Shown here: positions 13,318 to 44,000 of the stretch, in pieces
How the letters are laid out: each line of letters starts with the position of its first letter
Numbering within the stretch: the first letter of the stretch is position 1
DNA from: a virus
DNA length: 64,000 nucleotides
IMG/VR virus record: IMGVR_UViG_3300043548_000722
Coordinates: 1 to 64,000 of that record
Direction: 5' to 3' (one strand)
Notes under the pieces: model-generated
What the model saw: only the letters and a program-made list of their open reading frames with translations
Told to the model about the DNA's origin: nothing
Database searches by the model: none
Position numbers and translations under genes: made by a program

Positions 13318-13989
13318 ATGAAGTACTCGATGAGTATAGCCGACGCGGGACGCGTCCTCGGCAAGACAGAGAGAACTATCCGAAACTACATCAAGACGGG
13401 ACAACTTACAAGTACTGGTAGCGGAAGATCTCGACTACTGGATCCAGAAGAAGTCCACGAGCTTCTTGCCGCCCCAAAAGGAGAGAGGATTACTGTAGCC
13501 GAGATCCGCACCCTTCGCGCAACAGTGCGGCGTCTTGAGTCCGAGGTTGCAGTCATCCAGCACATGCTGGACCTGCGGAACGAAAGTCTTGGAATGACGA
13601 GTCAGTACGCGAAGGAGCTTCACGCTGCCATGATCGAGCAGTATGGGCGCCCTGCTGGCAGTTACTCCACGACCGAGATGCGGGCATGGGCCGACATCTT
13701 TACACGGATGGATGAGGCCGATCTTCTGACATTCAGCGGTGCGGGGGCTGCATGGAAGATTCTACTTCGCCTGTGCGGACGGATGCTCTCTGAGGTGACC
13801 GCGCATCCAGACTACTCCACGTCTCTTGAGCTTCAGCAGATTCATCGTCTACTGGCAGATGGGCGGCGGAGGTTGAAGATCTCTATCTTCATCTACTTGG
13901 AAAGCTTGAGTGACTCGGCCACGGCATTAGAGCGTACCCTAAAAGAGGACGTGTTTGAGCGTCTAAAAAATGACCTAAAACAGTCATAA
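13318..13989 (+). CDS. HTH DNA-binding protein (excisionase/MerR-like HTH plus coiled coil)
   Basis: Track ORF 12823..13989; likely start 13318 (SD GGAG). MSIADAGRVLGKTERTIRNYIKTGQL is an HTH_17-like pattern. Confidence 0.75.
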   Translation: MKYSMSIADAGRVLGKTERTIRNYIKTGQLTSTGSGRSRLLDPEEVHELLAAPKGERITVAEIRTLRATVRRLESEVAVIQHMLDLRNESLGMTSQYAKELHAAMIEQYGRPAGSYSTTEMRAWADIFTRMDEADLLTFSGAGAAWKILLRLCGRMLSEVTAHPDYSTSLELQQIHRLLADGRRRLKISIFIYLESLSDSATALERTLKEDVFERLKNDLKQS

Positions 13990-13990
13990 C
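13983..13990 (+). promoter_or_regulatory. GTCATAA candidate promoter element
   Basis: GTCATAAC upstream of ORF 14012, with an A-tract about 14 nt upstream. Confidence 0.4.
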
Positions 13991-14011
13991 TCTACTGCAA
14001 GGAACGCTTAG

Positions 14012-14455
14012 ATGACAAAAGGACCCCCTATAAAAATTCAGGAACCGTTCTTCCTTGCCGTTCCAGATGATTCCACAATTGAAGAGCAGAAAACTCACAG
14101 CACTGTCGAGGTATACAGAATGTCTTCTGACATGAAGAACTACACTCAGTACTCGTTCATGATTGAGGAAAGCCTACAGCTTGGGCGCACCGGGAAGCGA
14201 CTGCTGCACGGCGCGGGAGCTGCCGGGGCGACGATCGGAATCGCCAAGTTTGGGGAGGTTTCTCAGATCCTTGAGAATCCGATCAAGTCGGCGCTGATCG
14301 CGGGTGCAACTGGCGTCGTGCTGACCGTCGTCGCAGATCACCTCATCCTGGACGCGACAGAGATGCGGAAGTTCTACGCAAAGAAGATCTCGGGCATGGA
14401 CCAGCAGCTGGTGAGCGAAATCGCCGTCATGCTGAGTCAGCGCAAGGCGATGTGA
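14012..14455 (+). CDS. hypothetical membrane protein
   Basis: Two hydrophobic segments; start is either 14012 (SD AAGGA) or 14120 (SD GAGG). Confidence 0.6.
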   Translation: MTKGPPIKIQEPFFLAVPDDSTIEEQKTHSTVEVYRMSSDMKNYTQYSFMIEESLQLGRTGKRLLHGAGAAGATIGIAKFGEVSQILENPIKSALIAGATGVVLTVVADHLILDATEMRKFYAKKISGMDQQLVSEIAVMLSQRKAM

Positions 14456-14463
14456 TGCGATTT

Positions 14464-14495
14464 ACTGACGCCCCGGCATCTGCCGGGGCGTCAGT
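14464..14495. terminator. perfect 15-bp inverted repeat between convergent genes
   Basis: ACTGACGCCCCGGCA-TC-TGCCGGGGCGTCAGT, overlapping the terminase stop codon. Confidence 0.7.
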
Positions 14496-16215
14496 CCTTA
14501 TCCAGTTCTCGATCAATTTTAGCACTTGGAACGAGAATATCGGGACGGGGGTTGTCGATCATCGAAGCCATGAAGCACAGCAACAGCGCATGAAAACTAT
14601 CATCGGTAGTATTTGGCGACTTCTTATACTCAGTCATGCGCGTTCTCTCGTTGTATTCCGAGAAGATGGCCAGCATGTCCGCTCCGTAAGGACTGCCGAA
14701 CTCGGACCACTTGGGGAACCGGAATACTGACCGTCGCTTGATGGCGTTGAAGATCGCGCTCATTACCTCCGAGCGATGGATGAGAAAGCGGCCCTTTGCA
14801 GAGTCGTAGTTCACGATCGTCTTGGGGGTTGAGTACTGATACCGCACCACGCGCTGTGATCCGTAGAGACGAAGAAGCTCGTCGTTCGGCCAGTAGCCTC
14901 CTCCATAGTCCACCCCGACTCGCGACACTTCGAAGGCGGCAAGCAGCTTCTTGATCTTGGAGATTTGCTCTTTCGGCTCCGCCTCCGCGCCAGTGAAGCG
15001 GTGAGCAAAGACGATACGAAAGAAGCCGTCGATGTAGGCCCCGATCATGATGATCGTGTATGAGTTGTTCGAGTCCTGTCCCCAGTCAATCCCGGCGTAG
15101 ACCTGCTTTCCTCTCAGCTTGGTCATGAATTCTTTTAGCTTGTCCGGTTTAAAAGAGAACTCTCCATCGCAACAAGCCTGAACATCTCCCTGCATCAGGG
15201 GTCGTTGGCCTGAGTCGAAGCTGGCCCCAAGCACCTCGTTGTAGAACTTGGCGCGCGGGTACTGGTTGTACTTGGTGAGAATGTTGCTCCACTCCAACCA
15301 CGGGACCATCAACTGTGGGATGCGGAAGCCCTCGAAGATGTCGAACTTCGGGTTGGGATTTCCTGTCTTGACCCACTGGGCAAGTGGGTGGTCCGGACGG
15401 ATGACCTCCCCGCATCGATCGCACGACAATCCTTTGATGCCAATGTTCCGTTCCCCAAGAATGTTCCAGTGCCAGGAGCCGGGATTGTTTGGAAGGCCGT
15501 GTCGGTCACAAGGAACCGCCCATTCGTTCTGAGTGGAGTACGCGTCCCAGTAGACCTGGATCGAGTTGTCCAAGCTCTTGGGGGTTCCGCTGTAAATGAA
15601 CCACTTGAATGGACTGTGGGACGCTGCCTCCTCGATGACTGGGATGTTGTCCAACAGGAGGTCCTGAAACTCGTCCATGCAAATGAGATCGGCGGACAGA
15701 CCGCGACAGCGGTCTGCGTTCAGAAACGCATACCTGAGCTTGATCTCGCTGCGATTGATCGCCTTCTTCTCAAAGACGTTGTCAGTGAGATGCATCGGGA
15801 ACCAGGTCTTCAGATCAGGACAAGTCTCCAGCGGCTCCTTGAGTCTCGTCTTGGAAAACTCCTTCGTCTGCTGGCTCGAAGGGGAGACGTAGAGAATGCG
15901 AAAGTGCGGAATGAGACACGCATAAGACAGCGTCTTGTTCCCGAGGGTCGTGCTCTTTTCCACCTGACGCCCGCACATCAAAAGGACGCGTGGAGCCTGG
16001 ATGTCGTAGATTTCCCGTAAGTATCTACGCTCGGCGAAAGAGAAGTTCTCCAATTGCCGCGTGTGCGGGTTGGGCATCATCATCGTCGTCTCGATGAACT
16101 GAGACGGCCGGACAGGGATCTGCGCGTCACGGATGTCCTGCTCACTCAGGCGGACCTGGTCCACAGTCGGCGGCGTGTAGTCCCAGGGACCGGACAGTGA
16201 GTTCAGAAAACTCAT
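14491..16215 (-). CDS. terL: terminase large subunit
   Basis: Walker A variant GRQVEKST, Walker B ICMDEFQD, SGTP coupling motif, nuclease GIDWG and DDSFHA, Zn ribbon. Start reassigned to 16215 (SD GGAG); track start is 16272. Confidence 0.92.
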   Translation of the reverse strand: MSFLNSLSGPWDYTPPTVDQVRLSEQDIRDAQIPVRPSQFIETTMMMPNPHTRQLENFSFAERRYLREIYDIQAPRVLLMCGRQVEKSTTLGNKTLSYACLIPHFRILYVSPSSQQTKEFSKTRLKEPLETCPDLKTWFPMHLTDNVFEKKAINRSEIKLRYAFLNADRCRGLSADLICMDEFQDLLLDNIPVIEEAASHSPFKWFIYSGTPKSLDNSIQVYWDAYSTQNEWAVPCDRHGLPNNPGSWHWNILGERNIGIKGLSCDRCGEVIRPDHPLAQWVKTGNPNPKFDIFEGFRIPQLMVPWLEWSNILTKYNQYPRAKFYNEVLGASFDSGQRPLMQGDVQACCDGEFSFKPDKLKEFMTKLRGKQVYAGIDWGQDSNNSYTIIMIGAYIDGFFRIVFAHRFTGAEAEPKEQISKIKKLLAAFEVSRVGVDYGGGYWPNDELLRLYGSQRVVRYQYSTPKTIVNYDSAKGRFLIHRSEVMSAIFNAIKRRSVFRFPKWSEFGSPYGADMLAIFSEYNERTRMTEYKKSPNTTDDSFHALLLCFMASMIDNPRPDILVPSAKIDRELDKD

Positions 16216-16224
16216 GATTTCTCC

Positions 16225-16232
16225 GTCATAAG
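16225..16232 (+). promoter_or_regulatory. GTCATAAG candidate promoter element
   Basis: AAAA-N14-GTCATAAG followed by hairpin TGCTCA-CGA-TGAGCA, upstream of ORF 16271. Confidence 0.5.
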
Positions 16233-16270
16233 AATTTTGCTCACGATGAGCATAAGGGGGTTTCGACATC

Positions 16271-16840
16271 ATGGCTATCGTCTCTGGTTATGAAGTTCGG
16301 CAGATTCGTGGAGAGGCCAGCTTCGCGCTGGTTCTCCACCTCCTCGATCTGAAGGCGCTGACGAGCGCGACCAGCATCCGCATGGTTTCCGAGGATGTCT
16401 CGGAGATCTTGCGTTTCCTCAAGAGCCGCGAGGATCGGTTCGGGGAAGAGATCAACGTCAAGTCCGCCCGGCCCCTGAAGCTGACGCTTCGGGGGAAAGA
16501 GCGGGTCGGAAAGGTGGCGGGTCACTCCGTCACCATCGATGAGTGGTTCGGGCTTCGGGCTTGGACGTGGCTCGACATGGAGGGGGAAGGCGGGCAGATC
16601 AACGTCCCCGTCCTCGTGGCGGAAGTCGGACTCCACGAGCTCAAGCCCGAGGAGGGAGAGTCCCTCCAGAAGATGTTCCGCGAGTACGTCGCGGGCACCC
16701 TCGCGGAACTCCGGACCACCCACCCGCTGCGCTCCGTCTGGCAGGTTACGCTGGACGGGCATGGACGATACATCTTCGACAGCGCACCCGCCGCTCAGTC
16801 TGCGGTGGGTGCCAATGGCGGTAAGGAGCTTCGAGCGTAG
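16271..16840 (+). CDS. hypothetical protein
   Basis: 189 aa, SD AAGGGGG, coding-like codon bias. Confidence 0.65.
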   Translation: MAIVSGYEVRQIRGEASFALVLHLLDLKALTSATSIRMVSEDVSEILRFLKSREDRFGEEINVKSARPLKLTLRGKERVGKVAGHSVTIDEWFGLRAWTWLDMEGEGGQINVPVLVAEVGLHELKPEEGESLQKMFREYVAGTLAELRTTHPLRSVWQVTLDGHGRYIFDSAPAAQSAVGANGGKELRA

Positions 16841-17093
16841 TCTGCTCGGAGACCTCTACGCCTGGGATCTGGTGCCGCAGGTGGACCCCCTCAAGTGGGT
16901 GTTCCACCTGCGGCTGTGTCGCCACATTACAAAAGAGGAGGTTCCTTTTTTTAGGTCCCTCCTCAAAGAGTGGTGTGAGGCAAACGACGCCATATACAAG
17001 AAGTCCCACTGGGATAAGTGGGACTTCAAGGCGGTGATCTTGATTAAGGGCTTAGGACCGATTCGCGAGAACGATCCGTTTCAAGCCTCTTGA
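16815..17093 (+). CDS. hypothetical protein
   Basis: C-terminal part of track ORF 16539..17093; probable start MAVRSFER at 16815. Confidence 0.5.
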   Translation: MAVRSFERSLLGDLYAWDLVPQVDPLKWVFHLRLCRHITKEEVPFFRSLLKEWCEANDAIYKKSHWDKWDFKAVILIKGLGPIRENDPFQAS

Positions 17094-17994: not shown

Positions 17995-18857
17995 TATCGC
18001 TTCTCCGAGTGAAGGATCTCGTCGCGAGATCGATTCGAGATGGAACCCGTGGGCGACAAGTCTAACAGGCTCGGGATCTTCTTGTTGCCATGAAGGACCT
18101 TGAACTTCTCAAACTTCTTGAGCGTCTCTTGCAGGGCCGTGTCTCCGGCCTGCACACGCTCGTCGATCCGCGCAAGTCCGCGCGCAAGGTTACCAAGCAT
18201 CTCCACCTTCTTGTCTGAGAGCGGAAGTGTCCGCGTCTCCAAAAAGGTGTGGTACAGCTCGGATCGAACCTCCATCATGATCTTCTTGCCGTCCAGCTCT
18301 TTGCGGATCCCGGCCCGATATGCCGCAGCTTCGGGGCCTGCGCGCACAGCCAGATGATACGACTGGAGTAGTGGACTGACCCTCCCGCTCGTGTCTCCGT
18401 TGAGGTACTTGGCCCAGCCGCCAACTCCCATCAGATCCGAGTTCCAGAAGTAATGACGGAACGCAGCCACCGCCAACTCTGATACCGGATGGCCGAGCTC
18501 GGCAAGATTGCGGGATGCCTCGCTGTACGGCACCCCGCTCATCAGCAGTGTCTCGAGCTTTTCTCTCACAATCGGAGCAGAGAGAATCTTGTCTCTCATC
18601 TCTTCTGTGTTTTTGTCCGGATGTACCAGCGAATAGAGGCCGTTCTTCCGGAGCCAGGACGTTGTGGCGCGATGCTTAGAATCCCAAGGACGGAAGTCCT
18701 TGGGAACCTTGGCAAGAATCTCTTGGCACTTCTTGAAGTCCTCATCAGAGACCTCTGAGAGCCCGTGAATCTCCAAATTCAGGTTTACGTCGTCATGGGA
18801 CAGTGCTGCCCCGATCACGAGTAGATACTTGATGAAGAATTCCGCGGGATGTGCCAA
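17994..18857 (-). CDS. hypothetical protein (possible terminase small subunit)
   Basis: 287 aa helical protein with an HTH-like centre, a few genes upstream of terL. Function is a guess. Confidence 0.45.
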   Translation of the reverse strand: MAHPAEFFIKYLLVIGAALSHDDVNLNLEIHGLSEVSDEDFKKCQEILAKVPKDFRPWDSKHRATTSWLRKNGLYSLVHPDKNTEEMRDKILSAPIVREKLETLLMSGVPYSEASRNLAELGHPVSELAVAAFRHYFWNSDLMGVGGWAKYLNGDTSGRVSPLLQSYHLAVRAGPEAAAYRAGIRKELDGKKIMMEVRSELYHTFLETRTLPLSDKKVEMLGNLARGLARIDERVQAGDTALQETLKKFEKFKVLHGNKKIPSLLDLSPTGSISNRSRDEILHSEKR

Positions 18858-18864
18858 GAGCCCC

Positions 18865-19416
18865 TCAGTAGCGGTAGGGACTCCCGGATCTATTTCCGTA
18901 CGTACCGCCGCTCAGCCGACCTTCAAGTCTATCTAGCCTGTCCATCGTCTCGTAATGCATCCTATGGCGCTCGGCCTCCTCCATGTCTCGCCTTTCCTGA
19001 AGCTGCCGCTTTCCAAGATCAACTGCGGCCTGCCCGAAGTTCCCAGACTCTTGCAGTCCCTTCATTCTCTCAATTTCTTCTGAATCAGAGATGGCCATCG
19101 AACCTCCGACGAGGGCTCCGAATCCACCTCCGACTGCCGCACCTAGCGCGGCACTCCGCGCGTTAGCTCCTGCAAGAAGACCAAGTGCCCCACCAAATGC
19201 ACCTCCGGTCAATCCTCCGACCCCCACTGCTTTGCCGAAATGAGTTTTGGGCTCCGCAGCTTTGGCGTTGGCGTACTCCTCCATACGAGCCATACGAGTC
19301 TCGTACGGCTCCAACGCCTCCGAGACGTCAGGCTGGCTAAGACCAAAGACACGAGCTTCCTTGGTCCACAGAGGGTGATCCGCAAGAATAACTTGATAGG
19401 CTGCAAGTTTGTCCAC
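18865..19416 (-). CDS. MDK(L/I)AAYQ-leader glycine-zipper protein
   Basis: GTG start; MDKLAAYQVILADHPLWTKEA followed by a long GxxxG zipper hairpin. Confidence 0.75.
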   Translation of the reverse strand: MDKLAAYQVILADHPLWTKEARVFGLSQPDVSEALEPYETRMARMEEYANAKAAEPKTHFGKAVGVGGLTGGAFGGALGLLAGANARSAALGAAVGGGFGALVGGSMAISDSEEIERMKGLQESGNFGQAAVDLGKRQLQERRDMEEAERHRMHYETMDRLDRLEGRLSGGTYGNRSGSPYRY

Positions 19417-19424
19417 GACTACTC

Positions 19425-19985
19425 CTACTCGTCGGCATACTCGCCAGGATAGTCATACTCTTCGGGTATGGGCATGTCACGGTCTTCCAGTTTCTTACGG
19501 ATAAGGGCGACTCGGGGGTCCTGACGTAGCGCCAAGCGGGCAAGTTCGGGCTCCACAGAGCGAGCGCCGTAGACATTGTCCAGCCCGCCGAGTACGCCAA
19601 TCCCCGTACCAATGCCGACTATTCCCTTTGCAAGACCCGGATCCACACGATAGCCGAGCATACGAGGAATGCCAAGCGCGAGTCCTCCCTTCAGTGCTCC
19701 ACCAATCGCGCCTCCTACGGCAGCTCCACCGAGATAATGGCCGACACCTGCCGGAGAAGTAGCAGCTACATCCTGAAGGTACTTTTGATACCGAGGCACT
19801 TGCAAATCCTCCGGCTCATACTGGCTGCTCACAAACTCCGGGCGGAAGTACAAACCAGGGATTCCCGATAGGTTACCGGCGGGACGTGACACTCCCTCGG
19901 CTGCCATTGCTGGCTCGTCCTGGGCAGTCTTTTCCCACAGGGGGTGCTCAGATAGAAGCATTTGGTAAGCGGCGATCTTGTCCAT
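19425..19985 (-). CDS. MDKIAAYQ-leader glycine-zipper protein
   Basis: MDKIAAYQMLLSEHPLWEKTA followed by a GxxxG zipper hairpin; SD GAGG. Confidence 0.75.
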   Translation of the reverse strand: MDKIAAYQMLLSEHPLWEKTAQDEPAMAAEGVSRPAGNLSGIPGLYFRPEFVSSQYEPEDLQVPRYQKYLQDVAATSPAGVGHYLGGAAVGGAIGGALKGGLALGIPRMLGYRVDPGLAKGIVGIGTGIGVLGGLDNVYGARSVEPELARLALRQDPRVALIRKKLEDRDMPIPEEYDYPGEYADE

Positions 19986-20051
19986 GGTGACATCCTCTGG
20001 AGGTTTCTGACGGGAATCGTAGCTGGAACAGCTGCACTACGCAAGGACTGC

Positions 20052-21554
20052 TCAAACTTGATACGTTTTAAGGCTCTTCAGTCCTGAGATGACATCTTCG
20101 AGCGCGAACATAGCACGAACAGCTGCGGTCTTGGGGATGCTTTGCAGGCCGATCTGAGCCGCAAGCACCACGCTCGCCAACTTGGTCGATGCCTCCTCTA
20201 ACTGAGGAAGGAAGTCGATGAAGGTCTCGACGTTCTCCGGGTTGAGGAAGTTTAGCGCAAGAACTGCGTCTACAGAAGCAGTGTCTACAAGTGCCGACGC
20301 CTTCTTATCAAAAGTAATCGCAGAAATCTCCCTCAGCAAGTTAACACGCTGAGGAATCTCTGTATCAAGCATGTCGATTGCTGCTTCCTTGAGAGCCTCA
20401 TGGTAGGTCTCGTCGCGCGTAGAGAGCGGCTGAAGACCAAACATGCGGATCGGCTTACCGGAAGACGCGGCCTTCTCTAGACACGCAGCACTTAGGTTCT
20501 GTGGCATGCCTGCGGCAGCGAGCCAGAACACGCCGTCCACCCAGTCGTGCTCACCCGAGCCAACCTTCTCAAAGACCGGTCCGCTGAGGCGGCAGCCACC
20601 TTCCCATGCGCGAATCTCGGCCATTGTCTCGTATGCGTTGGCCTGTGCTGCCTTCATCAGCTCATTTCCGGCAGCAAGCTGCACTGGGTTCTCCAGCGGC
20701 ATGAACTTGAAGTCTGCGGGAATAGCGATGTCAGTGGTCGAGGATGCGACTGGGCGCACTATGCCCTGTGACGGAATGATGCGAATATCATTTCCATTTA
20801 GATCCTGCGCAGCAAAATACCCGTTGCCTTCGACGTGGACCTTCGTGACGATATTGTATGGCATCGTACACATAATAGCCTTGCCGTTGGTCTTAAGGAA
20901 GACGCCAAGGCCACGTACGTCCGGATTTTCTGGAATTGGTAAGTTGTGGTTTACACCAATGAGAGATCCAGAAATCATAGGCTGAACAGAGTATGCTGTT
21001 CCATTAGTGAACAGCGCGGCACTGGTAGGTGCTCCCTGAACAGGATCAAAAAGGTTGGGAATTACGTATCCCACCAACTGTTTTCCAGTGGTCGCGTCTG
21101 TCACCTTGTAGATGCCAAATGCCGTTACCGGAGCCATCTGCTCTGTCAAAGGATCCGGCTCTGCCTGAACCCCAGTGATTGTTGCAGCTCCGGTCTGATC
21201 TGCCGTCTGTAGCATCTGAGGGGGCAGTACTTGCTGAGCTTGCTGAGCAGACATCTGCGTCTCTTGCGGAGCCATGCCCGCAGGAGCTGCAGAAACCTTC
21301 ACGGAGTAGCCATACCCAGACGGGCGAACCTGAACTACGTCGACCCCCGGCATGAAGCGCAAAGAAGCACTCTTCGCCAGCTCTGACGCGGGAACGATTG
21401 GCTCGGCAGTCAACCTATGAAGAACGCTCATTACGGACGCGTTCTTCTCAATCATACGCCGCACCTCCGGGTCTGCGAACTCGCCCTCAAATCGCGCGAA
21501 GTCAGACTGGTTGATGGTTCCAGAAATGGCAGAACAGAGCGTGCGAGGTTTCAT
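20052..21554 (-). CDS. KxAS-rich virion-region protein
   Basis: 500 aa; KNAS, KSAS, KAAS, KKAS, KLAS. Confidence 0.7.
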   Translation of the reverse strand: MKPRTLCSAISGTINQSDFARFEGEFADPEVRRMIEKNASVMSVLHRLTAEPIVPASELAKSASLRFMPGVDVVQVRPSGYGYSVKVSAAPAGMAPQETQMSAQQAQQVLPPQMLQTADQTGAATITGVQAEPDPLTEQMAPVTAFGIYKVTDATTGKQLVGYVIPNLFDPVQGAPTSAALFTNGTAYSVQPMISGSLIGVNHNLPIPENPDVRGLGVFLKTNGKAIMCTMPYNIVTKVHVEGNGYFAAQDLNGNDIRIIPSQGIVRPVASSTTDIAIPADFKFMPLENPVQLAAGNELMKAAQANAYETMAEIRAWEGGCRLSGPVFEKVGSGEHDWVDGVFWLAAAGMPQNLSAACLEKAASSGKPIRMFGLQPLSTRDETYHEALKEAAIDMLDTEIPQRVNLLREISAITFDKKASALVDTASVDAVLALNFLNPENVETFIDFLPQLEEASTKLASVVLAAQIGLQSIPKTAAVRAMFALEDVISGLKSLKTYQV

Positions 21555-21641
21555 TTTGGGCTCACTTCATCTGAGGTAGGCGATAGAAGACGACAATACC
21601 CTTCAGCCGTCCGGGGTGCTACGGCAAGGCTCCTTGTTGCC

Positions 21642-23255: not shown

Positions 23256-23266
23256 TCGTACCTCTG

Positions 23267-24352: not shown

Positions 24353-24858
24353 TGATTCGGACGTCTATTCTTTAGGGCGTTGTACCCTAAATAACCTGTC
24401 CCCAGGGCACCCGCACCCGCTGTAGTAAGGGCCGCCCCACCCAGCAGTTGCTGTCCCTGCGTTCTCGCCACGTCGAGCTGTCTCAGCGAAACGGGACCAA
24501 GACCCCGTTCTGCCGCACGCTGGTTAACATTAGCAAGTAGTCTGTCTGTAGCTCCGCTCGTCAGTTTGCCTCCCCTACTGGAAGCCCAGTCCATCATGCG
24601 GCCACCAAGACCAGTCCGAGAACCTGAGACACCCGCACCTCCCGCACCTGCAATTGCTTTACCAGCACGGTAAACACCTCCAGTTACGGCCTTGCCGACA
24701 TCTGCAAGAAGGGCCTCCTTTTCCATTTCCATGAATGCTTGCGCGTATGGAGCAGGGAGCTGTCCATCGCATGTTCCGTACCTCTCGACGAGAACAGATG
24801 CCCTCTTTTCGAGTTCATTGCGGAGTAGAGCTTCTTGGTAGGCGGCGATCTTGTCCAT
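24349..24858 (-). CDS. MDKIAAYQ-leader glycine-zipper protein
   Basis: MDKIAAYQ...ELEKRAS...MEKEA followed by a Gly-rich amphipathic/hydrophobic region; directly downstream of the RNAP. Confidence 0.7.
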   Translation of the reverse strand: MDKIAAYQEALLRNELEKRASVLVERYGTCDGQLPAPYAQAFMEMEKEALLADVGKAVTGGVYRAGKAIAGAGGAGVSGSRTGLGGRMMDWASSRGGKLTSGATDRLLANVNQRAAERGLGPVSLRQLDVARTQGQQLLGGAALTTAGAGALGTGYLGYNALKNRRPNQ

Positions 24859-24865
24859 GGTGACC

Positions 24866-27800: not shown

Positions 27801-30800
27801 ACGTCCAGGTCGCGAAGCTTTTCTTCGAGAACTGCGAAGCCTGACTTTTGGCCGACGGAGCCGGACTCTGTCAGCAACTTTTGAAACTCCCCGTCTGGCA
27901 TTTTCAGGAGTAGACGGATGGGCTCTTCAAACACAGGGTTGGGGATCCGAACCCCAAGATCCATATGTGTCCACTTCGTACCTTCCAGGCCTCCCGTCTT
28001 AACCTTGTCAAATAGGCCACCCTTTTCTTCTTTGGTGAGAGAGCCTTTGGCAGCAAGCGTTTTCTCAGGGAATGCCAGCGCACCCGAACTTTGAGCAAGC
28101 GTCTGCTTATCCGTCATGGGCATGAGAGAGTACTCTCTACCCTTGCGCTCAGTGTAGACGCCCATCGCGCGCAAGTAGTGAGTAAACTGCTCCATCGAAC
28201 GAGGAACCTTCGGAGGGGGCGGACGCTCTCCGCGCATGATGCGGGTCCAGACATCCTCTGCCTGCTCCCGGTCAGACTTGTAGGTCTGCATTTCTCGAAG
28301 GTTGTTTTTTGCACCATAGGCAAGGAGGGTGTACGAATCGAGGCCTCCGATTCTCTGGCCTCCCTCTCCAATGCCCGAACCCTGTGACGCCTCTCCCGTG
28401 GTCTTGTACGCGTAGCCGAAACCACCGGCACGGGCCGAGATCTTTTTCTCCGCCTGGTGATCCAGCTTCAAGATGTACTGGTTGCCTACGAGAACGTTTC
28501 CGAGGTTCTCGCCCGTCTCAGGATCGAATAGCTCCTCCGTATCCGAGACACTGTGTTTCTGCATCAAGTCCTTGACCATCGCAGAGTAGTCTGTAGAGGC
28601 ATCAAAGTTGTTGACGACGAAGGGCTTACCCGTCTTTAGGGCCACCTTACCCGCCACGCTCTCGAGAACCTGTCCAGGATTCATACGCGAGGGAATGCCT
28701 GCGGGAGACAACAAGACCTGGACGTGGTTGCCGTCCTTATCTTTCGGCATCTGGTCGTCGGGCAGGATCTTGGTCACGATCCCTTTGTTTCCATGACGGC
28801 CGGAGAGCTTGTCTCCGACCTCCATTGTCTGTTCAGTACGGATGTAGACCATGATCCGCCGACCGTTGTTGACCACCCGCGCAACTGTCCCATTGTACTC
28901 GTGATCCCACTTCACAGACGCGTCGGAGTAGTCCTGAATCGCGCCCTTCAAGCGACGACGGATGTCCTCCGTGTCTTTGGATATTGCCATCTTCTGAAGT
29001 TTTGCAATCAAAACATCCCCAGGCTCGACCTTCTGGCCGACCTGGATAAGTCCATTGTCATCGAGCTTCTGAAGAATCTCAGGCGTCGCCTTTACGGGTC
29101 CAGCATACTGGCGCCAGAGTTTCTTGTTGACGACGATGTTCGGGTGCATCTCCGCTTCAGCAACGTGAAGATGGCTCGACACAAGCTTCTCGGCGGCGGA
29201 CTCCGAGATGACAATGCCGTCCTCGAAGTTGTACCCACGATACGGAATGTATGCGACTCGCAGGTTTGTTCCGAGAGACAGCTTTCCCTGCTTCGTAAAG
29301 TTTGAGTCGGCGAGAAGCTGGCCTTGGCGAACTTTATCGCCCACAGCAACCACCGGATCGGAGTGAAGCATGTGCTTCGCGCCATTGAGCGGGAAGTTGT
29401 TGTAGATGGCGTGGGTGTACTTCTTACCGTCTGTACCCAAAACAATAATACGGTCTTTTTTAACCTCAGTGACATTACCATCCGCATCAGACAGGACGGC
29501 TGCGGTGGCTCCAACAATGTCCTCGTACGTTGATCCCGCAGATGCCTGTGTCTGGACCAGCGGGGCCTCACGGTTTCTCAAGCCAACAGCCTGCTCTTGG
29601 TGCTTAGCGGCCATCATGGCGCGGTTGCCATTGTCGTTTTGTACAAACGGAATCAGGTTTGCACTGGCTGCGAAGAGGAGCTTTGCGGATGGAAGGATGT
29701 AGTCAACATCCTTCCATGCCCGCTTCGTTGTGTTCCTGTCCTTGTCATATACAACGACAAACTCAGAGAGTGGCGTGACCTTAGCCGTTCCATCTGGCTT
29801 CTTCTCGACCTTGGCCTGGTCAGGATACGCGACAACCGCCCGCTCCAGATCGGCGGCACTCTTTCGTTCAATCTTTCCAGTGCGGACATTTACGACCTGC
29901 GCCATCAGGTCGTGCCCAAATTTCTGAGCACCCAGCGGAACGTGGAGGATGATTCCAGTGTGCGAACTTTCCGGGGTCTGAAGTGGGTCAAGCATCCCGA
30001 GATGGCTGGGATTGATCAGCTTATCCTGCATCAGGTTGACGTTGTCTCCCTTGATGCCTCCAAACTCTGCGCCCAAGATGGTTGTGCGCGTATGATTGGA
30101 AAGGAACTGGAGAGGATTTGTCTGCGTTGGAAGCTGACCGGCTTTAAAGGGTTTAATGATCGCGGCGCCATACCCAGACACAGATGCGGGAATAATGTCC
30201 TGGATTCTATCCTTGCGATCGACATTGTTACGGATCTTGCGCGTGAGCGCATAGATCGTCTTGCCCTTTGTCAGTTCTTCATAGACGAAGTCCTCTGCCC
30301 CAAAAAGTCTTTTGTTTGTGAGAGACTGACGGTCATCCTCGGGAACATCTCCACGGCTGATGTCCACCAGTTTCTTTGCCGAAAGTAGCAGGGCTTCGCC
30401 CGTGATCGACGAGAACTCCTTGCCGAAGGCAGACTTCATTGTCTGTGGGCTGACCTCAGCAGACTCAAATGTCTCCTTTACATAGGCTGCCGCAGCTGAC
30501 ACTTCCGGAGGCTTGTAGTCCGGTCCCGCGCGCCGACCCTCAACCGCCTTGTGGAAGGAAAGCAACGCCTTCGAGCTACCCTTGGCCTCGTTGACGGCAA
30601 AAATCTTTTCCCCGAGCGCGCTCTTCATCTGCCCGTCGCTAACGCCCATCGCTACCAGGATTGGGTAGATCGGCACCTCCACCGACGATGTCGCGCTGCT
30701 CTTGATCGTCATCGTGATCAAGCCGAGCTTCTTAGGATCTTTACGTTCAATGTAAAGATCGAAGGAACCAACCTTGCTGCCTGCGGCGACGTTCCATTTT

Positions 30801-31216
30801 GCGAGCAGATCACCGTTCTGCGCTTCCGCGTGGTACGCGCCGGGATTGAGCCGGAACACGCTGTCCAGCTGCATCTCGTTCCCTCCGACGATGTAGCTGT
30901 AGCGCGTGGTGATTTTAGGAATCTTTGCGAGCGTACGAGATCTCTGATCCAGCACCTTCCCAGTTGCCTTATCAATCAGACGAAAGTTTCCGACAAGCTC
31001 TGGGCCCCAGGTCTGATCGTTCATCTTGGCTTCGAGCTGACTGTTGTAGTTGCTGGGATTGAATTGGGCCGACCCGGTCGCGTCGTCATCCTCAACTTCC
31101 AGCTTTACCAGCTCGAGACGATGCTTACTTCCCTCGATAGGAAAGTGAGAAGAAATCGCCTCTTTTGTCTTCTGAACCAGAAGATTGTAGCTTTCGGTCG
31201 GGTTCAGATTGGACAT
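24866..31216 (-). CDS. rpoBC: DNA-directed RNA polymerase, fused beta-beta' single polypeptide
   Basis: Beta motifs QTPES, LIPF..NDNGNRAMM, GYNFEDGI, GDKLSGRHGNKG, PSRMNPGQ. Beta' motifs LGKRQDLSGRSVI, catalytic NADFDGD (26996..27016), bridge helix HGARKG, ICATCYG, trigger loop GEPITQMQMRTFHTGG. Confidence 0.97.
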   Translation of the reverse strand: MSNLNPTESYNLLVQKTKEAISSHFPIEGSKHRLELVKLEVEDDDATGSAQFNPSNYNSQLEAKMNDQTWGPELVGNFRLIDKATGKVLDQRSRTLAKIPKITTRYSYIVGGNEMQLDSVFRLNPGAYHAEAQNGDLLAKWNVAAGSKVGSFDLYIERKDPKKLGLITMTIKSSATSSVEVPIYPILVAMGVSDGQMKSALGEKIFAVNEAKGSSKALLSFHKAVEGRRAGPDYKPPEVSAAAAYVKETFESAEVSPQTMKSAFGKEFSSITGEALLLSAKKLVDISRGDVPEDDRQSLTNKRLFGAEDFVYEELTKGKTIYALTRKIRNNVDRKDRIQDIIPASVSGYGAAIIKPFKAGQLPTQTNPLQFLSNHTRTTILGAEFGGIKGDNVNLMQDKLINPSHLGMLDPLQTPESSHTGIILHVPLGAQKFGHDLMAQVVNVRTGKIERKSAADLERAVVAYPDQAKVEKKPDGTAKVTPLSEFVVVYDKDRNTTKRAWKDVDYILPSAKLLFAASANLIPFVQNDNGNRAMMAAKHQEQAVGLRNREAPLVQTQASAGSTYEDIVGATAAVLSDADGNVTEVKKDRIIVLGTDGKKYTHAIYNNFPLNGAKHMLHSDPVVAVGDKVRQGQLLADSNFTKQGKLSLGTNLRVAYIPYRGYNFEDGIVISESAAEKLVSSHLHVAEAEMHPNIVVNKKLWRQYAGPVKATPEILQKLDDNGLIQVGQKVEPGDVLIAKLQKMAISKDTEDIRRRLKGAIQDYSDASVKWDHEYNGTVARVVNNGRRIMVYIRTEQTMEVGDKLSGRHGNKGIVTKILPDDQMPKDKDGNHVQVLLSPAGIPSRMNPGQVLESVAGKVALKTGKPFVVNNFDASTDYSAMVKDLMQKHSVSDTEELFDPETGENLGNVLVGNQYILKLDHQAEKKISARAGGFGYAYKTTGEASQGSGIGEGGQRIGGLDSYTLLAYGAKNNLREMQTYKSDREQAEDVWTRIMRGERPPPPKVPRSMEQFTHYLRAMGVYTERKGREYSLMPMTDKQTLAQSSGALAFPEKTLAAKGSLTKEEKGGLFDKVKTGGLEGTKWTHMDLGVRIPNPVFEEPIRLLLKMPDGEFQKLLTESGSVGQKSGFAVLEEKLRDLDVDTELKAAEKKLQTATENELNVAYKRVRYLRALKELDIKPVDAYTNRVLPVLPPTLRRVSIGFDGTQIIDPANKMYAIIGQMTRQLEQAEKEKMPVGEIQRIQAEIYNTTKALRVTGMQMEGKQVPSLMDKLTGNQPKQSFFQTGVLGKRQDLSGRSVITPDPEMPLDEVGVPREMAMEMYKPFVIKELWRNMGRATSPGEARMMIKKNHPAANEALERVVRDRPALMKRDPSLHMFSLMAFRPRLIEGKSIKIHPLVTGGFNADFDGDTMALYVPITEGAVQEAKNMMPSKNLFSPTSGGLMVTPSQDSVLGIFQATEWGKPVPGQFTEDQAIQAVRAGKLKVYNVIKVTGHSKPTTAGRLMINRTLPAQFRGDEELLYDSSFRMAKGKMKKFATKIARATPEEFAKMIDEWKALGFNLAFKNGSSVKLNDFHDGYKLRDEILAKYKKEEEAVLKGAGSKAAKDEKIISIYEKARKELKEAGEARYNSRLDNGMWDWARSGAKGDWNQFGQMVMGPLLVQDPLNRTVPFAITKSFGEGLPVSQYYASLHGARKGTIDRASATAKPGALTKELINTVIDNTIKSKDCGTVRGALLSSMEADIEGRFLAGEVPLKGGETIPKGTLITPQLRSKIKNDGPKKILVRSPLYCNEVKGICATCYGLSERGSLYPVGTNVGIIAGHALGEPITQMQMRTFHTGGVGGTSGVGDYFTAAENLFKVPAKLKGEATLSTVSGKVEKIESDALGGKTVTIAGKVHTVPFTNPLLPNIRVGVEVDKAEALSEGRKNPHHVLDITKSMSAVRMHLADSLNELYVETTGNERRRNIETVIRAMTDLTRVDDPGDDHAYLRGQLVPLSEIERKNKELRAMNKREIKHSPQLKPLDKMPLAGQEDWMARLNFQRLQETYTEGAAQNWKSDIHGHPIPGIAHGAEFGLEPPGSTKLPNAPGVPDRMTNIPKPGQVPTPAPQAPQKSPGFFSFL

Positions 31217-31236
31217 TAAAAATATCTCCAGTGCAG

Positions 31237-31244
31237 GTCATAAG
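31237..31244 (+). promoter_or_regulatory. GTCATAAG candidate promoter element
   Basis: AAAA-N14-GTCATAAG followed by hairpin GCCGGAG-TATAG-CCCCGGC and SD AAGGAG; divergent from the RNAP gene. Confidence 0.5.
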
Positions 31245-31282
31245 TATAACAGCCGGAGTATAGCCCCGGCAAAGGAGAGTAG

Positions 31283-31357
31283 ATGAGCGAGCCCGACGAT
31301 ACTGAGGAAGGGAAGGCCAACCCCTGGAAGAAAACGGACGAGTTCGGAGACTGGTAA
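31283..31357 (+). CDS. small ORF, 24 aa (MSEPDDTEEGKANPWKKTDEFGDW)
   Basis: Strong SD AAGGAG; TAATG-coupled to the next small ORF; below the track cutoff. Confidence 0.45.
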   Translation: MSEPDDTEEGKANPWKKTDEFGDW

Positions 31358-31446
31358 TGCTTTCAATACTGTTTGTTGCCGCCGCAATCGCGGCGGCTTT
31401 GAAGACGGCGGGGCAGGTGATTGCCTCTGAGATTGGTGACAAGTAA
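31357..31446 (+). CDS. small hydrophobic ORF, 29 aa (MLSILFVAAAIAAALKTAGQVIASEIGDK)
   Basis: TAATG coupling; single hydrophobic helix. Confidence 0.4.
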   Translation: MLSILFVAAAIAAALKTAGQVIASEIGDK

Positions 31447-31457
31447 GACCGCGGGGC

Positions 31458-31492
31458 GCCTCCGATCTCGGCTCAACGCCGAGATCGGGGGC
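31458..31492 (+). promoter_or_regulatory. 15-bp hairpin occluding the RBS of ORF 31493
   Basis: GCCTCCGATCTCGGC-TCAAC-GCCGAGATCGGGGGC immediately followed by ATG. Confidence 0.65.
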
Positions 31493-31741
31493 ATGCCCTC
31501 GCGTCCACACAGAAGCGACCTTCTTTTTAAGACCGAGGAGGAAGACACCATTCAGGTCTACTGCCCCCTCATCGAAGAGAAGTGTGGACTTCTGGAGTGT
31601 GGCGGATGCCCCGCGATTGGGCCAAGAGTCTGGCTCTGTTCTGCCTGCGTTCGAGTATACCCAGCAGAACCGTTCTGGACGTCGGGCCACTGTGCCGACT
31701 GTGGAGATTACTCTAGCTTCCTCGCGCCGGTGAAGAGATGA
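31493..31741 (+). CDS. small Cys-rich (Zn-finger) protein
   Basis: CPL...C...CGGC...CSAC...CADC; start reassigned from 31421. Confidence 0.55.
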   Translation: MPSRPHRSDLLFKTEEEDTIQVYCPLIEEKCGLLECGGCPAIGPRVWLCSACVRVYPAEPFWTSGHCADCGDYSSFLAPVKR

Positions 31742-31992
31742 TTCCGTTTCGATGCGACTGGTGCGACGCGACTGCCACGACAGATGACCGCATGGTCAGC
31801 CTGGCGCGGCATCGTGTTGTACGTCGTCCCCGCAAGTGGGACATTGAGGACGAAACCTTCTCAACCTTCGGAAGCGAGGCGATGTTCCACGAAAAGTGCT
31901 TCGTGGACAACGCGCGAGAAATTCTTGACGGTCTATACAGTGGTATCCAGATCGACCAGCCCAGGAAGAGACCGGCCGATCTCACTCGCTGA
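31738..31992 (+). CDS. small Zn-finger protein
   Basis: CDWC...HEKC; overlaps the upstream stop (ATGA). Confidence 0.55.
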   Translation: MIPFRCDWCDATATTDDRMVSLARHRVVRRPRKWDIEDETFSTFGSEAMFHEKCFVDNAREILDGLYSGIQIDQPRKRPADLTR

Positions 31993-31994
31993 GG

Positions 31995-34031: not shown

Positions 34032-35050
34032 GACTGCTCATCCTTTCCCTGACCGAATGCTCTGTCTAAGACAGAGCCAGCAGATCCTGTAACGTCAGAA
34101 GCCAGTCCTTCAAATGGAACTGCTGCCATCCCTACCGCTGACGGAACGATCAGTTTCTGGCTTAGGAAAGACCTCTTTCCGCCTGTGATCAAGTTAGATT
34201 TACCTAATCCTAAGTTTCTACCGGTAAATAGATGAGCCGTTCCAGCGGTGATACCCGCAGCAGTTAGGCCACGAGCGAGCCTCTCCGCAACACCACGCTC
34301 ATTGCCCTCATCGTCGGTGGAGGGGAGCGCGTTGGCGACACCAGTGACTCCCACCTGGCCGACCTCAATCGCCCGCTCGCCTGGCATATACGTGGAGATG
34401 CCCCCGCGTAATTTTACGTTCTGTGCGCCAGCTTCTTGGCCGATCTGCCGATACGCGTCAAGCAACTCTTCCTCTGGAATCATTTCTCCCGCGCGCTGGC
34501 GATCCATGATGCTTGTAATTTTAGATCTTAAGTTGTCGCTAGCGTTAAACTTCGGATCTTTGTTAAAAAATCCAGTCAGCCCACCAGAGGACCTTTCGCC
34601 TGCGCTTGCCCATCCTCCCTTGCGGGCTGCTCCAGCCGTATCTGATAACGCGTCAAACTGTGTTGCAGTGCCATCAAGCGCGTTTTCAAAGGCCTCATTC
34701 ATAAGCTCCACGCGTTTAGACCTAGCAGCCCCCTGAGTAAACTCGTCGGCATTATTTCCTGCGAAGCTGGCTCCGCTTGACAGCCCGCGCTTAATACTTT
34801 GAACGGGCTTAGTCGCTACTTCCTTAGCTGCCGTAAAGAGCTTACCGGCCCCGCTAGGATTACGAAGTAGGGCCGCACCAGCTACCAAACCTCCGATTGC
34901 GGGGAGAACCACGCCCGGACCCGTGAAGTTTCTTTGTATGATATTTTTTTTCTTTGGCTCCTGTGCCTCTGGCGCAGAGGGGGTAGCCGAAGAAATCCCA
35001 GCTTGTTTTTGCAACTCAAGTGAGAACGAGTAAAGAACGCTTTTATTCAT
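34028..35050 (-). CDS. ELQKQA-leader glycine-zipper membrane-type protein
   Basis: YSFSLELQKQA leader, several Gly-rich hydrophobic segments, lower-GC codons. Confidence 0.65.
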   Translation of the reverse strand: MNKSVLYSFSLELQKQAGISSATPSAPEAQEPKKKNIIQRNFTGPGVVLPAIGGLVAGAALLRNPSGAGKLFTAAKEVATKPVQSIKRGLSSGASFAGNNADEFTQGAARSKRVELMNEAFENALDGTATQFDALSDTAGAARKGGWASAGERSSGGLTGFFNKDPKFNASDNLRSKITSIMDRQRAGEMIPEEELLDAYRQIGQEAGAQNVKLRGGISTYMPGERAIEVGQVGVTGVANALPSTDDEGNERGVAERLARGLTAAGITAGTAHLFTGRNLGLGKSNLITGGKRSFLSQKLIVPSAVGMAAVPFEGLASDVTGSAGSVLDRAFGQGKDEQS

Positions 35051-35053
35051 AGT

Positions 35054-35842
35054 TCACCTCAGCTCGGCAGTGTAGCGGAAGAGGGCATCGACGGCCTCAT
35101 ATAGTTTTACCGCGCATATATCATCAGCAGTTTCTAGAAGGGTCGGGTTCTTTTTACTTAGAAGAGCGACCAGGGTCCTCTGCACGCCCGCAGTTGGAAG
35201 CTTAGTGACAATCTTTACCTTAGACCCATTAAACTTCTTTCGAAGCCCCTCGTCTGGCTCCATCTTCAATAGACTGTCCGTGTTGTATCGGTCTGTGCAG
35301 TAGCTACAGAGGCCATCCTCTTTTGGCTCCTCTTCATTTCCGCACTCTCCGCAGACCTGTGTGGTCTTCGAGATCAGAGGATTTAAAAACTCCAGTGGCT
35401 CCGGTACGTACCAGATTCCCGACTCATGGAGCTGCGCGGCCATATACCGCCGGACCTCCTCCGCAAATAATGGAATGTCTCCGAGGGTCCCTAAGTCCAA
35501 TCGGATTCTGTTAGCCGCATCTACGGCCAACATAAGGTCAGAGACTGACTGGTTATCAATATGTGAAACAGATGGGATCTTACCCACAAGGGCCTGAGAG
35601 ACTGTGTGGAACGTTTCCCAGCTCTTCCAAAACATGTCGTGGTTGGCAACCGAAATGGCCGCCAGTAGCTTCATGAGCACGACACGGGGGATGTTGAGTT
35701 TCAGGCGATCCTCAACAGACCTTTTAACGACAAAAGGTTCCCACTCCAACGCTCTTGGGCCGAAGAGAGAAAGGTAGCCACGAAGCAAGGAGAGAGGATG
35801 ACTCTTCTCGTCCTTGAATACCTGGATATCAGTACCCACCAT
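35054..35842 (-). CDS. hypothetical protein with Zn ribbon
   Basis: 262 aa; CGECG...CSYC. Confidence 0.65.
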   Translation of the reverse strand: MVGTDIQVFKDEKSHPLSLLRGYLSLFGPRALEWEPFVVKRSVEDRLKLNIPRVVLMKLLAAISVANHDMFWKSWETFHTVSQALVGKIPSVSHIDNQSVSDLMLAVDAANRIRLDLGTLGDIPLFAEEVRRYMAAQLHESGIWYVPEPLEFLNPLISKTTQVCGECGNEEEPKEDGLCSYCTDRYNTDSLLKMEPDEGLRKKFNGSKVKIVTKLPTAGVQRTLVALLSKKNPTLLETADDICAVKLYEAVDALFRYTAELR

Positions 35843-36923
35843 TGTTTGTATCTCTGGACTGCGAGGCCATACGGGACAGGAGGATCTGCTGCTCTAGCGG
35901 CATCTTCTTGAATGTGCCAATCGGATCGCTCTTGAACCGCGACACTACGTCCTCCTCAAAAACATCTTGCAGCGCAGTGTGTGCGGCGGTGCTACCGGCA
36001 TATCGCATCAGCATGGAAGCCGTGACGTAGTCGCCTCCGTGAACCCAGGAATACTCAGCCTGCTTTTCCGTGCCAAAAACTGTGAGTACGGGGTCAGGGA
36101 TGTTCTGGCCATAACGATTTAGGAGTCCAGCACGCTCGTCCATCAGGAAGAGCGCCTCGACGACATCGTCTGGATCGAGCGCCGCCGCCATCTTGGCCAG
36201 TCGAAGGTAGTCTTCCTGGTACGCGGGGTTGGCTGTGTACTCTGCGCGACGAGAAGCAACCTTCTCAAAGCGCGGGTTGAGTGTGGTCCCGCTGTAACGG
36301 AAGATGTGATCCGGGATCTGCGCACCGATGTCGCTTGCGACCTTCACAATGTCGACTGCGGCCTCGTGCCGATCGTACGGATCGAGGTCATCCCATGCCT
36401 CAACGAGGGCCGAGATCGCATCAAAGGCAGACGCAGTCTTCTCATGCCTACCCAGCGGCACAGACATGCCCTTTCCAAGAGGACGCATGATCTGCGACGG
36501 CTCGTATGAGGCGGTTTTCGCGTACTGCGTAGCGGCAGACGCCGCCTTGATCAGTACGCGGCGTCCGTCCCCGGGAAGATCGTCTCCCTCATTGGCAAGG
36601 ATGGTCAGTGCCGGGTGAGAGGCGAGTCCGAGTGCGTCGGCCGCATCGAGAAGATTGGCCGCGGCCACCTTGACCGCCCCGCTGGGCAGGCCGTGCTCTG
36701 CGTTGAGCAAGTACCACTGCGAGAGAAAGGTGTTGCCCGCGTCATGGCACGCAAACTTGCGATGCTCCTTGCCTTGGCTGTCCATGATGATGAGCGCGAA
36801 GTCACGGTCATACAGATCGTCACGCTCCTTCCAGGATGCCGTCTTGAGGAACTCGACGCCGCTCTTGGGTCCAGTCGTGCGAAACAGCTCTCCGAGGTCG
36901 TCATGATGGTCGACTACAGCCAT
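35829..36923 (-). CDS. KxAS-rich head-region protein (six KxAS), first gene of the structural unit
   Basis: SD AGGAG; KTAS x3, KVAS x2, KAAS. Confidence 0.75.
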   Translation of the reverse strand: MAVVDHHDDLGELFRTTGPKSGVEFLKTASWKERDDLYDRDFALIIMDSQGKEHRKFACHDAGNTFLSQWYLLNAEHGLPSGAVKVAAANLLDAADALGLASHPALTILANEGDDLPGDGRRVLIKAASAATQYAKTASYEPSQIMRPLGKGMSVPLGRHEKTASAFDAISALVEAWDDLDPYDRHEAAVDIVKVASDIGAQIPDHIFRYSGTTLNPRFEKVASRRAEYTANPAYQEDYLRLAKMAAALDPDDVVEALFLMDERAGLLNRYGQNIPDPVLTVFGTEKQAEYSWVHGGDYVTASMLMRYAGSTAAHTALQDVFEEDVVSRFKSDPIGTFKKMPLEQQILLSRMASQSRDTNNGGY

Positions 36924-37003
36924 GTTTTAGCTCCTGAAGGAGAAAATGTAGATCCCAGTATACGCAGTCATAAGCCTTGTAGCACCCAACCAGAGGTTAG
37001 TGC
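36924..37003. promoter_or_regulatory. divergent control region between the structural and replication blocks
   Basis: Strand switch; GTCATAAG at 36967 (plus) and TATACT on the minus strand near 36957-36962. Confidence 0.6.
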
Positions 37004-38781: not shown

Positions 38782-38792
38782 GTGAGGTAAGC

Positions 38793-43950: not shown

Positions 43951-43956
43951 TCACTG

Positions 43957-43990
43957 CCGAGGGGCCCCTTCTGGGGCCCCTCGGTCTTTG
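43957..43990 (+). terminator. hairpin terminator/attenuator after the SSB-like gene
   Basis: CCGAGGGGCCCC-TTCT-GGGGCCCCTCGG followed by TCTTTG. Confidence 0.7.
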
Positions 43991-44000
43991 CGGAGGAACC

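Follow-up and report, generated by a model that had tools for sequence, protein, structure and literature searches.

A GTCATAA-based candidate promoter in a clade of freshwater phages that encode a fused RNA polymerase and a sigma-70-family protein

In the first 64 kb of the viral record IMGVR_UViG_3300043548_000722 (64,000 nucleotides, hereafter the window), the motif GTCATAA(G/C) had been predicted from the sequence to be the promoter core of plus-strand transcription units, possibly read by the RNA polymerase (RNAP) of the phage. We analysed this motif in the window, in the whole 107,650-bp record (genome G000; CheckV completeness estimate 58%, G+C content 56%) and in related genomes. Sequence comparison gives good support to GTCATAA(G/C/T) as the −10-type core of a phage-specific, two-part promoter. 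The best explanation of this signal, and a fairly probable one, is that a sigma factor encoded by the phage reads it together with the phage RNAP. The sequencing runs that contain G000 DNA are mostly freshwater metagenomes, with no RNA run among them. Within the window the majority of the genes lie on the minus strand and are virion genes, and the plus-strand genes form small islands plus a replication module.

The window holds seven copies of GTCATAAS (S being G or C), all at the positions originally predicted (11796, 12971, 13983, 16225, 31237, 36967 and 38749) and all on the plus strand (two-sided P = 0.016 for the strand bias); 1.65 copies are expected, and seven were reached in none of 100 shuffles. 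The bare 7-mer GTCATAA also occurs seven times, against 3.6 expected, and this count was reached in 6 of 100 shuffles. The original prediction had held that the evidence lies in position rather than count; position is decisive in the relatives. Four copies are intergenic and lie, as had been claimed, close upstream of plus-strand starts, with 21–38 nt between the 8-mer and the next plus-strand ATG. Automated gene calls place a start within 45 nt downstream of two of the seven copies (P = 0.0085), and a Shine–Dalgarno (SD) site with a start codon lies within 60 nt downstream of five of the seven. By itself, the evidence from the window is modest and suggestive.

We compared G000 with four related contigs, G004 (165 kb), G001 (131 kb), G002 (142 kb) and G005 (183 kb, 99% complete), whose RNAPs are 86%, 70%, 63% and 46% identical, respectively, to that of the window. 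GTCATAA occurs 26–27 times in G004, 7 times in G001, 10 times in G002 and 12 times in G005, and nearly all of these copies are intergenic and 10–90 nt upstream of a start on the same strand. Where about 5% would be expected, a same-strand start lies within 90 nt of 18 of the 26 copies in G004 (binomial P = 3e-17), 11 of 12 in G005 (P = 7e-14), 5 of 7 in G001 (P = 9e-6) and 6 of 10 in G002 (P = 3e-6). In G000 itself GTCATAA is among the most enriched intergenic 7-mers, 6 of 13 counts falling in 5% of the sequence. Orthologous intergenic sites keep GTCATAA while their flanks diverge, as seen in the terminase gap and in a four-genome alignment at 31237. The predicted role as a promoter core of plus-strand units is supported by genome-wide enrichment of position in four relatives, by conservation at orthologous sites and by variants that precede tRNA genes. 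The signal is limited to relatives with a terminase identity of at least about 63%. Its strand was assessed separately. Relatives found via the terminase keep (C/G)TTATG(A/C/G)C ahead of the terminase gene within diverged flanks; these relatives always share the same divergent gene pair, and this comparison is therefore undecided on strand. Among 69 strong position weight matrix (PWM) hits near a start, 41 have a co-directional gene upstream, and copies are also carried by co-directional runs without a divergent partner, for example at 18740–26311 of G005. The orientation is therefore unambiguous: most copies in the relatives have no divergent gene, and the plus-strand assignment proposed earlier stands.

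The extended form of the signal was derived from a logo of 68 copies aligned on the core, with positions counted from the first G of the core. The logo revealed an A-tract spanning −18 to −15, in which 50 of the 68 copies have A at −17; an A/T-rich stretch from −7 to −4; an invariant core with G preferred directly after it; T at +13 in 44 of 68 copies; and a purine at +14 in 62 of 68. In full, (T)TAAAA is separated by 14 nt from GTCATAA(G), and a T/purine step lies 7 nt farther downstream. Such a pyrimidine–purine step 7 nt past a −10-type hexamer usually signals a start site, and the +14 purine is taken as the predicted transcription start; this fits the earlier expectation of a start a few nucleotides downstream of the motif. 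Numbered from this predicted start, (T)TAAAA lies at about −34 to −29 (the A-tract proper at about −32 to −29), GTCATAA at −14 to −8, the following (G) at −7, T at −1 and the purine at +1. TTAAAA and CATAA are 16 nt apart, and the predicted layout is that of the sigma-70 family.

Three of the four intergenic copies in the window head a transcription unit and the fourth precedes the second gene of its island, as had been described. One site (promoter 16207–16253, plus strand; PWM score 25.0) lies within a 55-nt divergent gap beside the large terminase gene (14491–16215, minus strand) and heads island B (about 16271–17093): the A-tract is at 16207–16210, the core at 16225–16232, the predicted start at 16239 and a hairpin at 16238–16252, with 38 nt between the 8-mer and the ATG at 16271. 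Of 12 distinct relatives with 63–90% terminase identity, 11 retain G.CATAA here despite diverged flanks. The promoter of island C (31218–31270, plus strand; PWM score 17.5) has its A-tract at 31218–31222, its core at 31237–31244, a predicted start at 31251 and a hairpin at 31252–31270, and lies 38 nt ahead of the ATG at 31283 of a 24-codon open reading frame (ORF) with an SD site; TAAAAAT, G(T/C)CATAA and a compensated stem are all kept in the four-genome alignment. The replication module (37004–51424, plus strand; helicase, UDG, DnaB, DNA polymerase I and RecA) is preceded by a promoter at 36967–36981 (core 36967–36974, predicted start 36981, 29 nt to the ATG at 37004; PWM score 20.9), whose A-tract at 36943–36946 is out of register and whose orthologs lie at 71376 in G004, 96111 in G001 and 78711 in G002. 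The promoter of the second gene of island A (13965–13997, plus strand; island at about 13330–14730; PWM score 19.8) comprises an A-tract at 13965–13970, the core GTCATAAC at 13983–13990 and a predicted start at G 13997, with T at +13 and G at +14, 21 nt separating the 8-mer from the ATG at 14012. This core overlaps the stop codon of the preceding helix-turn-helix (HTH) gene (13330–13989), and its ortholog at 47642 of G004 keeps the core 25 nt ahead of its gene. AAAA had been claimed 14 nt upstream of three of these cores; the spacing is exactly 14 nt at 16225 and 31237, whereas the core at 13983 has a spacing of 12 nt and that at 36967 one of 20 nt.

The remaining three copies had been called intragenic, and all three are. 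The copy at 11796–11803, inside a minus-strand gene, scores below 9 and has neither an A-tract nor a plus-strand gene downstream; that at 12971–12978, inside the minus-strand gene 12181–13299, scores 10.9, within the range of shuffled sequence. Both are probably due to chance. The copy at 38749 (38749–38763, plus strand; PWM score 16.8) lies inside the 3′ end of the helicase gene, yet is probably a fifth promoter site, internal to the module and serving the UDG gene: it stands 36 nt ahead of an in-frame ATG at 38793 with a strong SD site (GGTGAGG), upstream of the UDG gene. At +13 this copy carries G, unlike the T of the consensus, and its ortholog at 73160 of G004 is conserved, though coding constraint could account for this conservation.

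A matrix scan of G000 returned nine hits with a PWM score of at least 14, all on the plus strand, eight of which precede plus-strand genes or tRNAs. They are the five window sites and hits at 88335 (before a 103-aa gene), 88900 (GCCATAAG, ahead of a DNA ligase gene), 106206 and 106981. The last is the one-mismatch variant GTTATAAG, located 12 nt before the first tRNA of a cluster, a tRNA-Arg; the one-mismatch variant GACATAAG of G004 likewise lies 12 nt before the first tRNA of its cluster, also a tRNA-Arg. The position of these variants before tRNA genes is evidence that the signal acts on transcription and not on translation. No strong copy lies ahead of any virion or structural gene in the G000 scan. 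Downstream of the copies in G004 and G005 lie small genes of unknown function and genes for AAA ATPases, an SLT transglycosylase and an L7/L12-like protein, as well as the replication module. The promoter model is of use in annotating these genomes, marking the starts of units and separating non-structural from virion genes. The tRNA cluster of G000 (107000–107235) comprises tRNA-Arg, tRNA-Asn and tRNA-Ala, and the syntenic region of G004 holds 14 tRNAs. The L7/L12-like gene of G005 (22606–23076, minus strand) has a strong promoter copy ahead of it; its product of 156 aa carries the C-terminal domain of ribosomal L7/L12 (Pfam E = 1e-11).

Among known promoters, those of the sigma-28 class (FliA/SigD/WhiG) are, by sequence, the closest. 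Like the phage signal they are two-part: a TAAA-type −35 element is combined with a long −10 element whose last four bases, ATAA, occupy −11 to −8, and two upstream bases serve as an extended −10; the fliC promoter of P. aeruginosa has TCTAAAG at −36 to −30 and GCCGATAA at −15 to −8 (PMC12784957). Sigma-28 promoters have a TAAA-type element about 15 nt before the −10 element; its phage counterpart is in register at two sites (16225 and 31237), is shifted by 2 nt at 13983 and lies out of register at 36967. The −10 elements differ: the phage core is GTCATAA and not GCCGATAA, it lacks the CGA typical of sigma-28 sites, is one base shorter and differs at −14 to −12, so that only ATAA and the length class are common to both. 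The systems also differ in what they serve, the phage promoter standing before replication genes, small genes and tRNAs and likely depending on a phage-encoded core enzyme.

Candidates for both parts of a reading enzyme are encoded in G000. The first is a single-chain beta-beta′ RNAP of 2116 aa (24866–31216, minus strand), assigned to PHROG RNAP beta families, with an intact NADFDGD at residues 1401–1407. Its residues 1121–1457 align with residues 176–515 of E. coli beta′ (E = 4e-53), and the aligned segment contains the clamp helices. The clamp helices of beta′ are the main docking site for sigma. The second is a sigma-70-family protein of 269 aa, identified with Pfam and encoded outside the window on the minus strand (78351–79160 of G000; L115:14351–15160). 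It matches Sigma70_r3 with 45.4 bits (cut-off 25.3) and Sigma70_r4 with 25.8 bits (cut-off 24.1), its best NCBIfam match is TIGR02479 FliA_WhiG (E = 5e-10), and it aligns with regions 2–4 of solved SigA structures (E = 6e-7). Residues 83–130 align to regions 2.x of B. subtilis SigA, with the Trp pair and the Tyr of SigA replaced. Each of the five genomes encodes one fused RNAP and one ortholog of the 269-aa sigma protein. The putative DNA-reading helices of sigma are conserved across the five orthologs, which fits a promoter common to the five genomes. Both genes lie within the virion gene block of G000. The original suggestion that the phage RNAP is the reader is plausible and can be refined: the phage sigma-70-family protein is the likely specificity factor. 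Two further observations concern the sigma gene. It follows a gene for a 1213-aa protein and two small genes, the same order as gp8–gp9–gp10 of Salmonella phage Arash, and four of the five orthologs share a G-K-A-A near residue 30.

Arash (OQ632216) offers a more distant comparison. Arash and the Vibrio phages D69, D181 and D148 have a homologous RNAP (28–30% identity) and a homologous sigma (30%), which in Arash is gp10. The Arash sigma gene, like that of G000, lies in the virion block, and it follows a large hydrolase-like gene; unlike in G000, beta and beta′ are separate genes. Mass spectrometry placed the RNAP subunits and sigma among the most abundant proteins of the Arash virion, and the same paper reports no promoter (PMC10585845). 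GTCATAA is not enriched in Arash (14 matches, compared with 17 for the control). When the Arash upstream regions were searched for k-mers without bias, GGTATAAG emerged instead, 18 of its 31 copies lying upstream of genes (P = 3e-22). GGTATAA has 40 copies in Arash, 39 of them on the minus strand, which is the non-structural strand, and most lie 17–60 nt before a start. T is found at +13 in 22 of 26 copies and G or A at +14 in 25 of 26, and the consensus reads GGTATAAG-TAAAG-TGTAA with an upstream element tCAATAA. The architecture common to the clade and Arash is G−14 N N A T A A G−7 ... T−1 R+1, and the differences lie at −13/−12, where Arash has GT instead of TC, and in the upstream element. 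Core and upstream element thus shift in step with a 30%-identical sigma, which fits a phage specificity factor better than a host housekeeping sigma, short of proof. GGTATAAG appears to be a previously undescribed promoter class in a cultivable phage.

These observations can be joined in the following model. The FliA-like sigma of the phage would recognise the signal while bound to the single-chain beta-beta′ RNAP, its domain 4 binding the A-tract and its domains 3 and 2 binding GT plus CATAA and flipping out A−11. The units so driven would be the small plus-strand islands among the minus-strand virion genes, the replication module, the DNA ligase gene and the tRNA cluster, and many of the longer leaders would begin with a 5′ stem-loop that probably stabilises the transcript. 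Because the genes for sigma and RNAP belong to the virion block and the Arash virion contains the homologs of both, the enzyme would probably be delivered with the DNA, and the promoters would fire early; we regard this early timing as plausible, if tentative. On a broader view, which we put forward with similar reserve, the freshwater phages of this clade, about 180 kb in size, and more distantly Arash may carry a complete bacterial-type transcription kit in the virion that reads a private sigma-28-like promoter, TAAAA-N14-GTCATAAG (GGTATAAG in Arash), and serves early, replication and tRNA genes without the host polymerase, core and sigma having changed together between the clades.

Several points weigh against the model. 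The phage sigma scores 39.5 bits against the FliA family, whose cut-off is 189.6, and its region 2 escapes Pfam (a Sigma70_r2 search of the five genomes gave no hits). Packaging in the virion is inferred from a 30%-identical homolog and from gene position. The heads of the plus-strand units at 13330 and 105824 are without the motif. One RNAP and one sigma leave the promoters of the virion genes unexplained, the only elements seen there being sigma-70-like TATACT elements. A host sigma might also recognise the signal, and some G004 copies read GTCATAAT and give CATAAT, a five-of-six match to the sigma-70 −10 element that includes T−7.

Along these lines, the host housekeeping holoenzyme might read the promoter as an extended −10-like element (G−14, A−11 T A A), the phage RNAP and sigma serving other genes. 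The early genes of many lytic phages are transcribed in this way, and the sigma-70-family geometry, with its 16-nt spacer and a start 7 nt past the hexamer, would suit such an enzyme, as would the CATAAT of the roughly 11 of 27 G004 copies that end in T and the Arash version TGGTATAAG, which is close to TGnTATAAT. A scan with the sigma-70 consensus, however, called none of the four sites, and its counts in both regions scanned were at the level of shuffled sequence. No TTGACA-like −35 element is present at the sites, nor is the combination of TTGACA, 16–18 nt and a TATAAT with A in its second and T in its sixth position. At −7 every window site has G or C and all 12 copies of G005 have G, whereas T at −7 is a key sigma-70 contact (PMC7598289). 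For these reasons, the missing TTGACA, the G/C at −7 and the empty consensus scan, the signal is not sigma-70-like. In addition, nothing in the sigma-70 consensus corresponds to the invariant GTC, and the motif is specific to the clade and becomes GGTATAAG in Arash along with the phage sigma. We therefore consider reading by the host holoenzyme unlikely.

A second alternative keeps the phage sigma as the reader and places it on the host core enzyme, the phage beta-beta′ enzyme transcribing something else. Phage sigmas that redirect the host core, such as T4 gp55 and SPO1 gp28, are the textbook case, and reviews from 2020–2021 (including PMC7598289) divide large phages into those with sigma-less, split RNAPs and those with sigma factors and no polymerase. 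The clade departs from this pattern: sigma and RNAP co-occur one-to-one in the five genomes and in Arash, both are present in Arash virions, and the phage RNAP retains the beta′ region with the sigma-docking clamp helices. We consider a host core somewhat less probable still than the host holoenzyme. Very improbable is a role other than that of a plus-strand promoter, be it as an operator, an RNA-processing or translation signal, or as TTATGAC serving divergent minus-strand genes by analogy with the late TATG motif of phiKZ: although three window sites lie in divergent gaps with the reverse complement 9–43 nt before minus-strand starts, and TTATGAC is enriched upstream of divergent genes (its ATG being in frame with the minus-strand ORFs at 11796 and 12971), the 41 of 69 copies in relatives that have no divergent gene led us to reject a minus-strand late promoter, the start codon follows at anything from 10 to 120 nt whereas the A-tract and the +13/+14 signal hold a fixed register, and the variants before tRNA genes stand where there is no ribosome-binding site.

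Taken with its preferred reader, a phage sigma on the phage RNAP, the signal can be set beside known phage systems. To our knowledge, T4 and SPO1 encode no RNA polymerase; they resemble the present clade in that a phage sigma-family protein defines a phage-specific promoter class. The early promoters of the jumbo phages phiKZ and AR9 (PMC7598289) are similar in having an AT-rich motif near −10 upstream of early operons that can be found computationally (the start being predicted here), and these phages have their own multisubunit-type RNAP, thought to be delivered in the virion. Their enzymes, unlike that of the clade, are split into four to five polypeptides, lack sigma and come in two sets (PMC7598289), whereas the clade has one fused beta-beta′ chain near bacterial enzymes (about 30% identity), a sigma-70-family factor and a two-part promoter. 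Moraphage (PMC12619734) belongs to a different lineage and has no RNAP. A literature search for a GTCATAA promoter or for a phage with a fused RNAP and a sigma found no relevant publication. The clade combines a fused bacterial-type polymerase, a sigma factor and a cognate promoter candidate, unlike either group of phages in the reviews. Such a three-part transcription system (one polymerase chain, one sigma and a promoter of about 30 bp), probably independent of the host, might serve as an orthogonal expression system, and the question can be approached experimentally in Arash, a cultivable phage with a parallel motif.

A short hairpin had been described after each of the four intergenic cores, as a weak one at 13983. 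It was found at 16225 (6 bp) and 31237 (5 bp), and is weak at 36967 and absent at 13983. The stem at 16238–16252 is a perfect palindrome, TGCTCA-CGA-TGAGCA, covering roughly +1 to +14 of the predicted transcript; the close relatives L012 and L028 have conserved its sequence, and it could be an operator instead of, or besides, an RNA hairpin. In G004, G001 and G002 the stem at 31252–31270 is preserved by compensatory substitutions, from GCCGG/CCGGC to GTCGGC/GCCGAC and GGTCGGG/CCCGACC. Across the relatives the stems begin 1–3 nt past the predicted start and accompany long leaders only, and are therefore not part of the promoter: leaders of at most 25 nt fold no better than shuffled sequences (mean z +0.24), and only those above 45 nt fold better (mean z −1.75). 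Sense and antisense folds do not differ in stability, so that the stems may act at the RNA or at the DNA level, and no loop motif common to the hairpins was found (7 of 25). Most simply, the hairpins are 5′-terminal stem-loops that stabilise the RNA.

A second kind of element occurs on the minus strand. At 31243–31272 we observed TTGCCG-18-TATACT with a TG (TGTTATACT), 26 nt before the start of the RNAP gene; it stands back to back with the plus-strand core at 31237, overlapping it by 2 nt, and the block TGTTATACTTATGRCC is conserved in G004 and G001. Further TATACT elements lie on the minus strand at 36957–36962, 4 nt from the core at 36967, and at 13333–13338; at the former spot the relatives read TATAAT, TATGAT or TATGGT. 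These elements are candidates for a second, sigma-70-like promoter class of the minus-strand virion operons. AGTATA/TATACT was also considered as a part of the GTCATAA motif and rejected: some occurrences are ATG-AGT-ATA gene starts, and others resemble a separate minus-strand −10 element.

Other features of the window are as follows. The minus-strand genes include, besides the terminase gene, a head protease-like gene and a gene for a 1590-aa tail-fibre-like protein. The product of the first gene of island A (13330–13989, plus strand), 219 aa long, has a MerR/excisionase-type HTH at its N terminus (Pfam HTH_17, 27.4 bits) and a weak match to a small-terminase PHROG. Island C (about 31283–31992, plus strand) contains small ORFs only: one of 24 aa, a hydrophobic one of 29 aa and two Cys-rich ones with CxxC pairs, of about 100 and 84 aa. 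An Rfam search of the window matched no family. Finally, a hairpin GGGGCCCC-TTCT-GGGGCCCC lies at 43961–43980, between the gene 42832–43950 and the DNA polymerase gene; GGGGCCCC occurs three times in G000, each time between genes, and the copies are likely terminators or attenuators within the replication unit.

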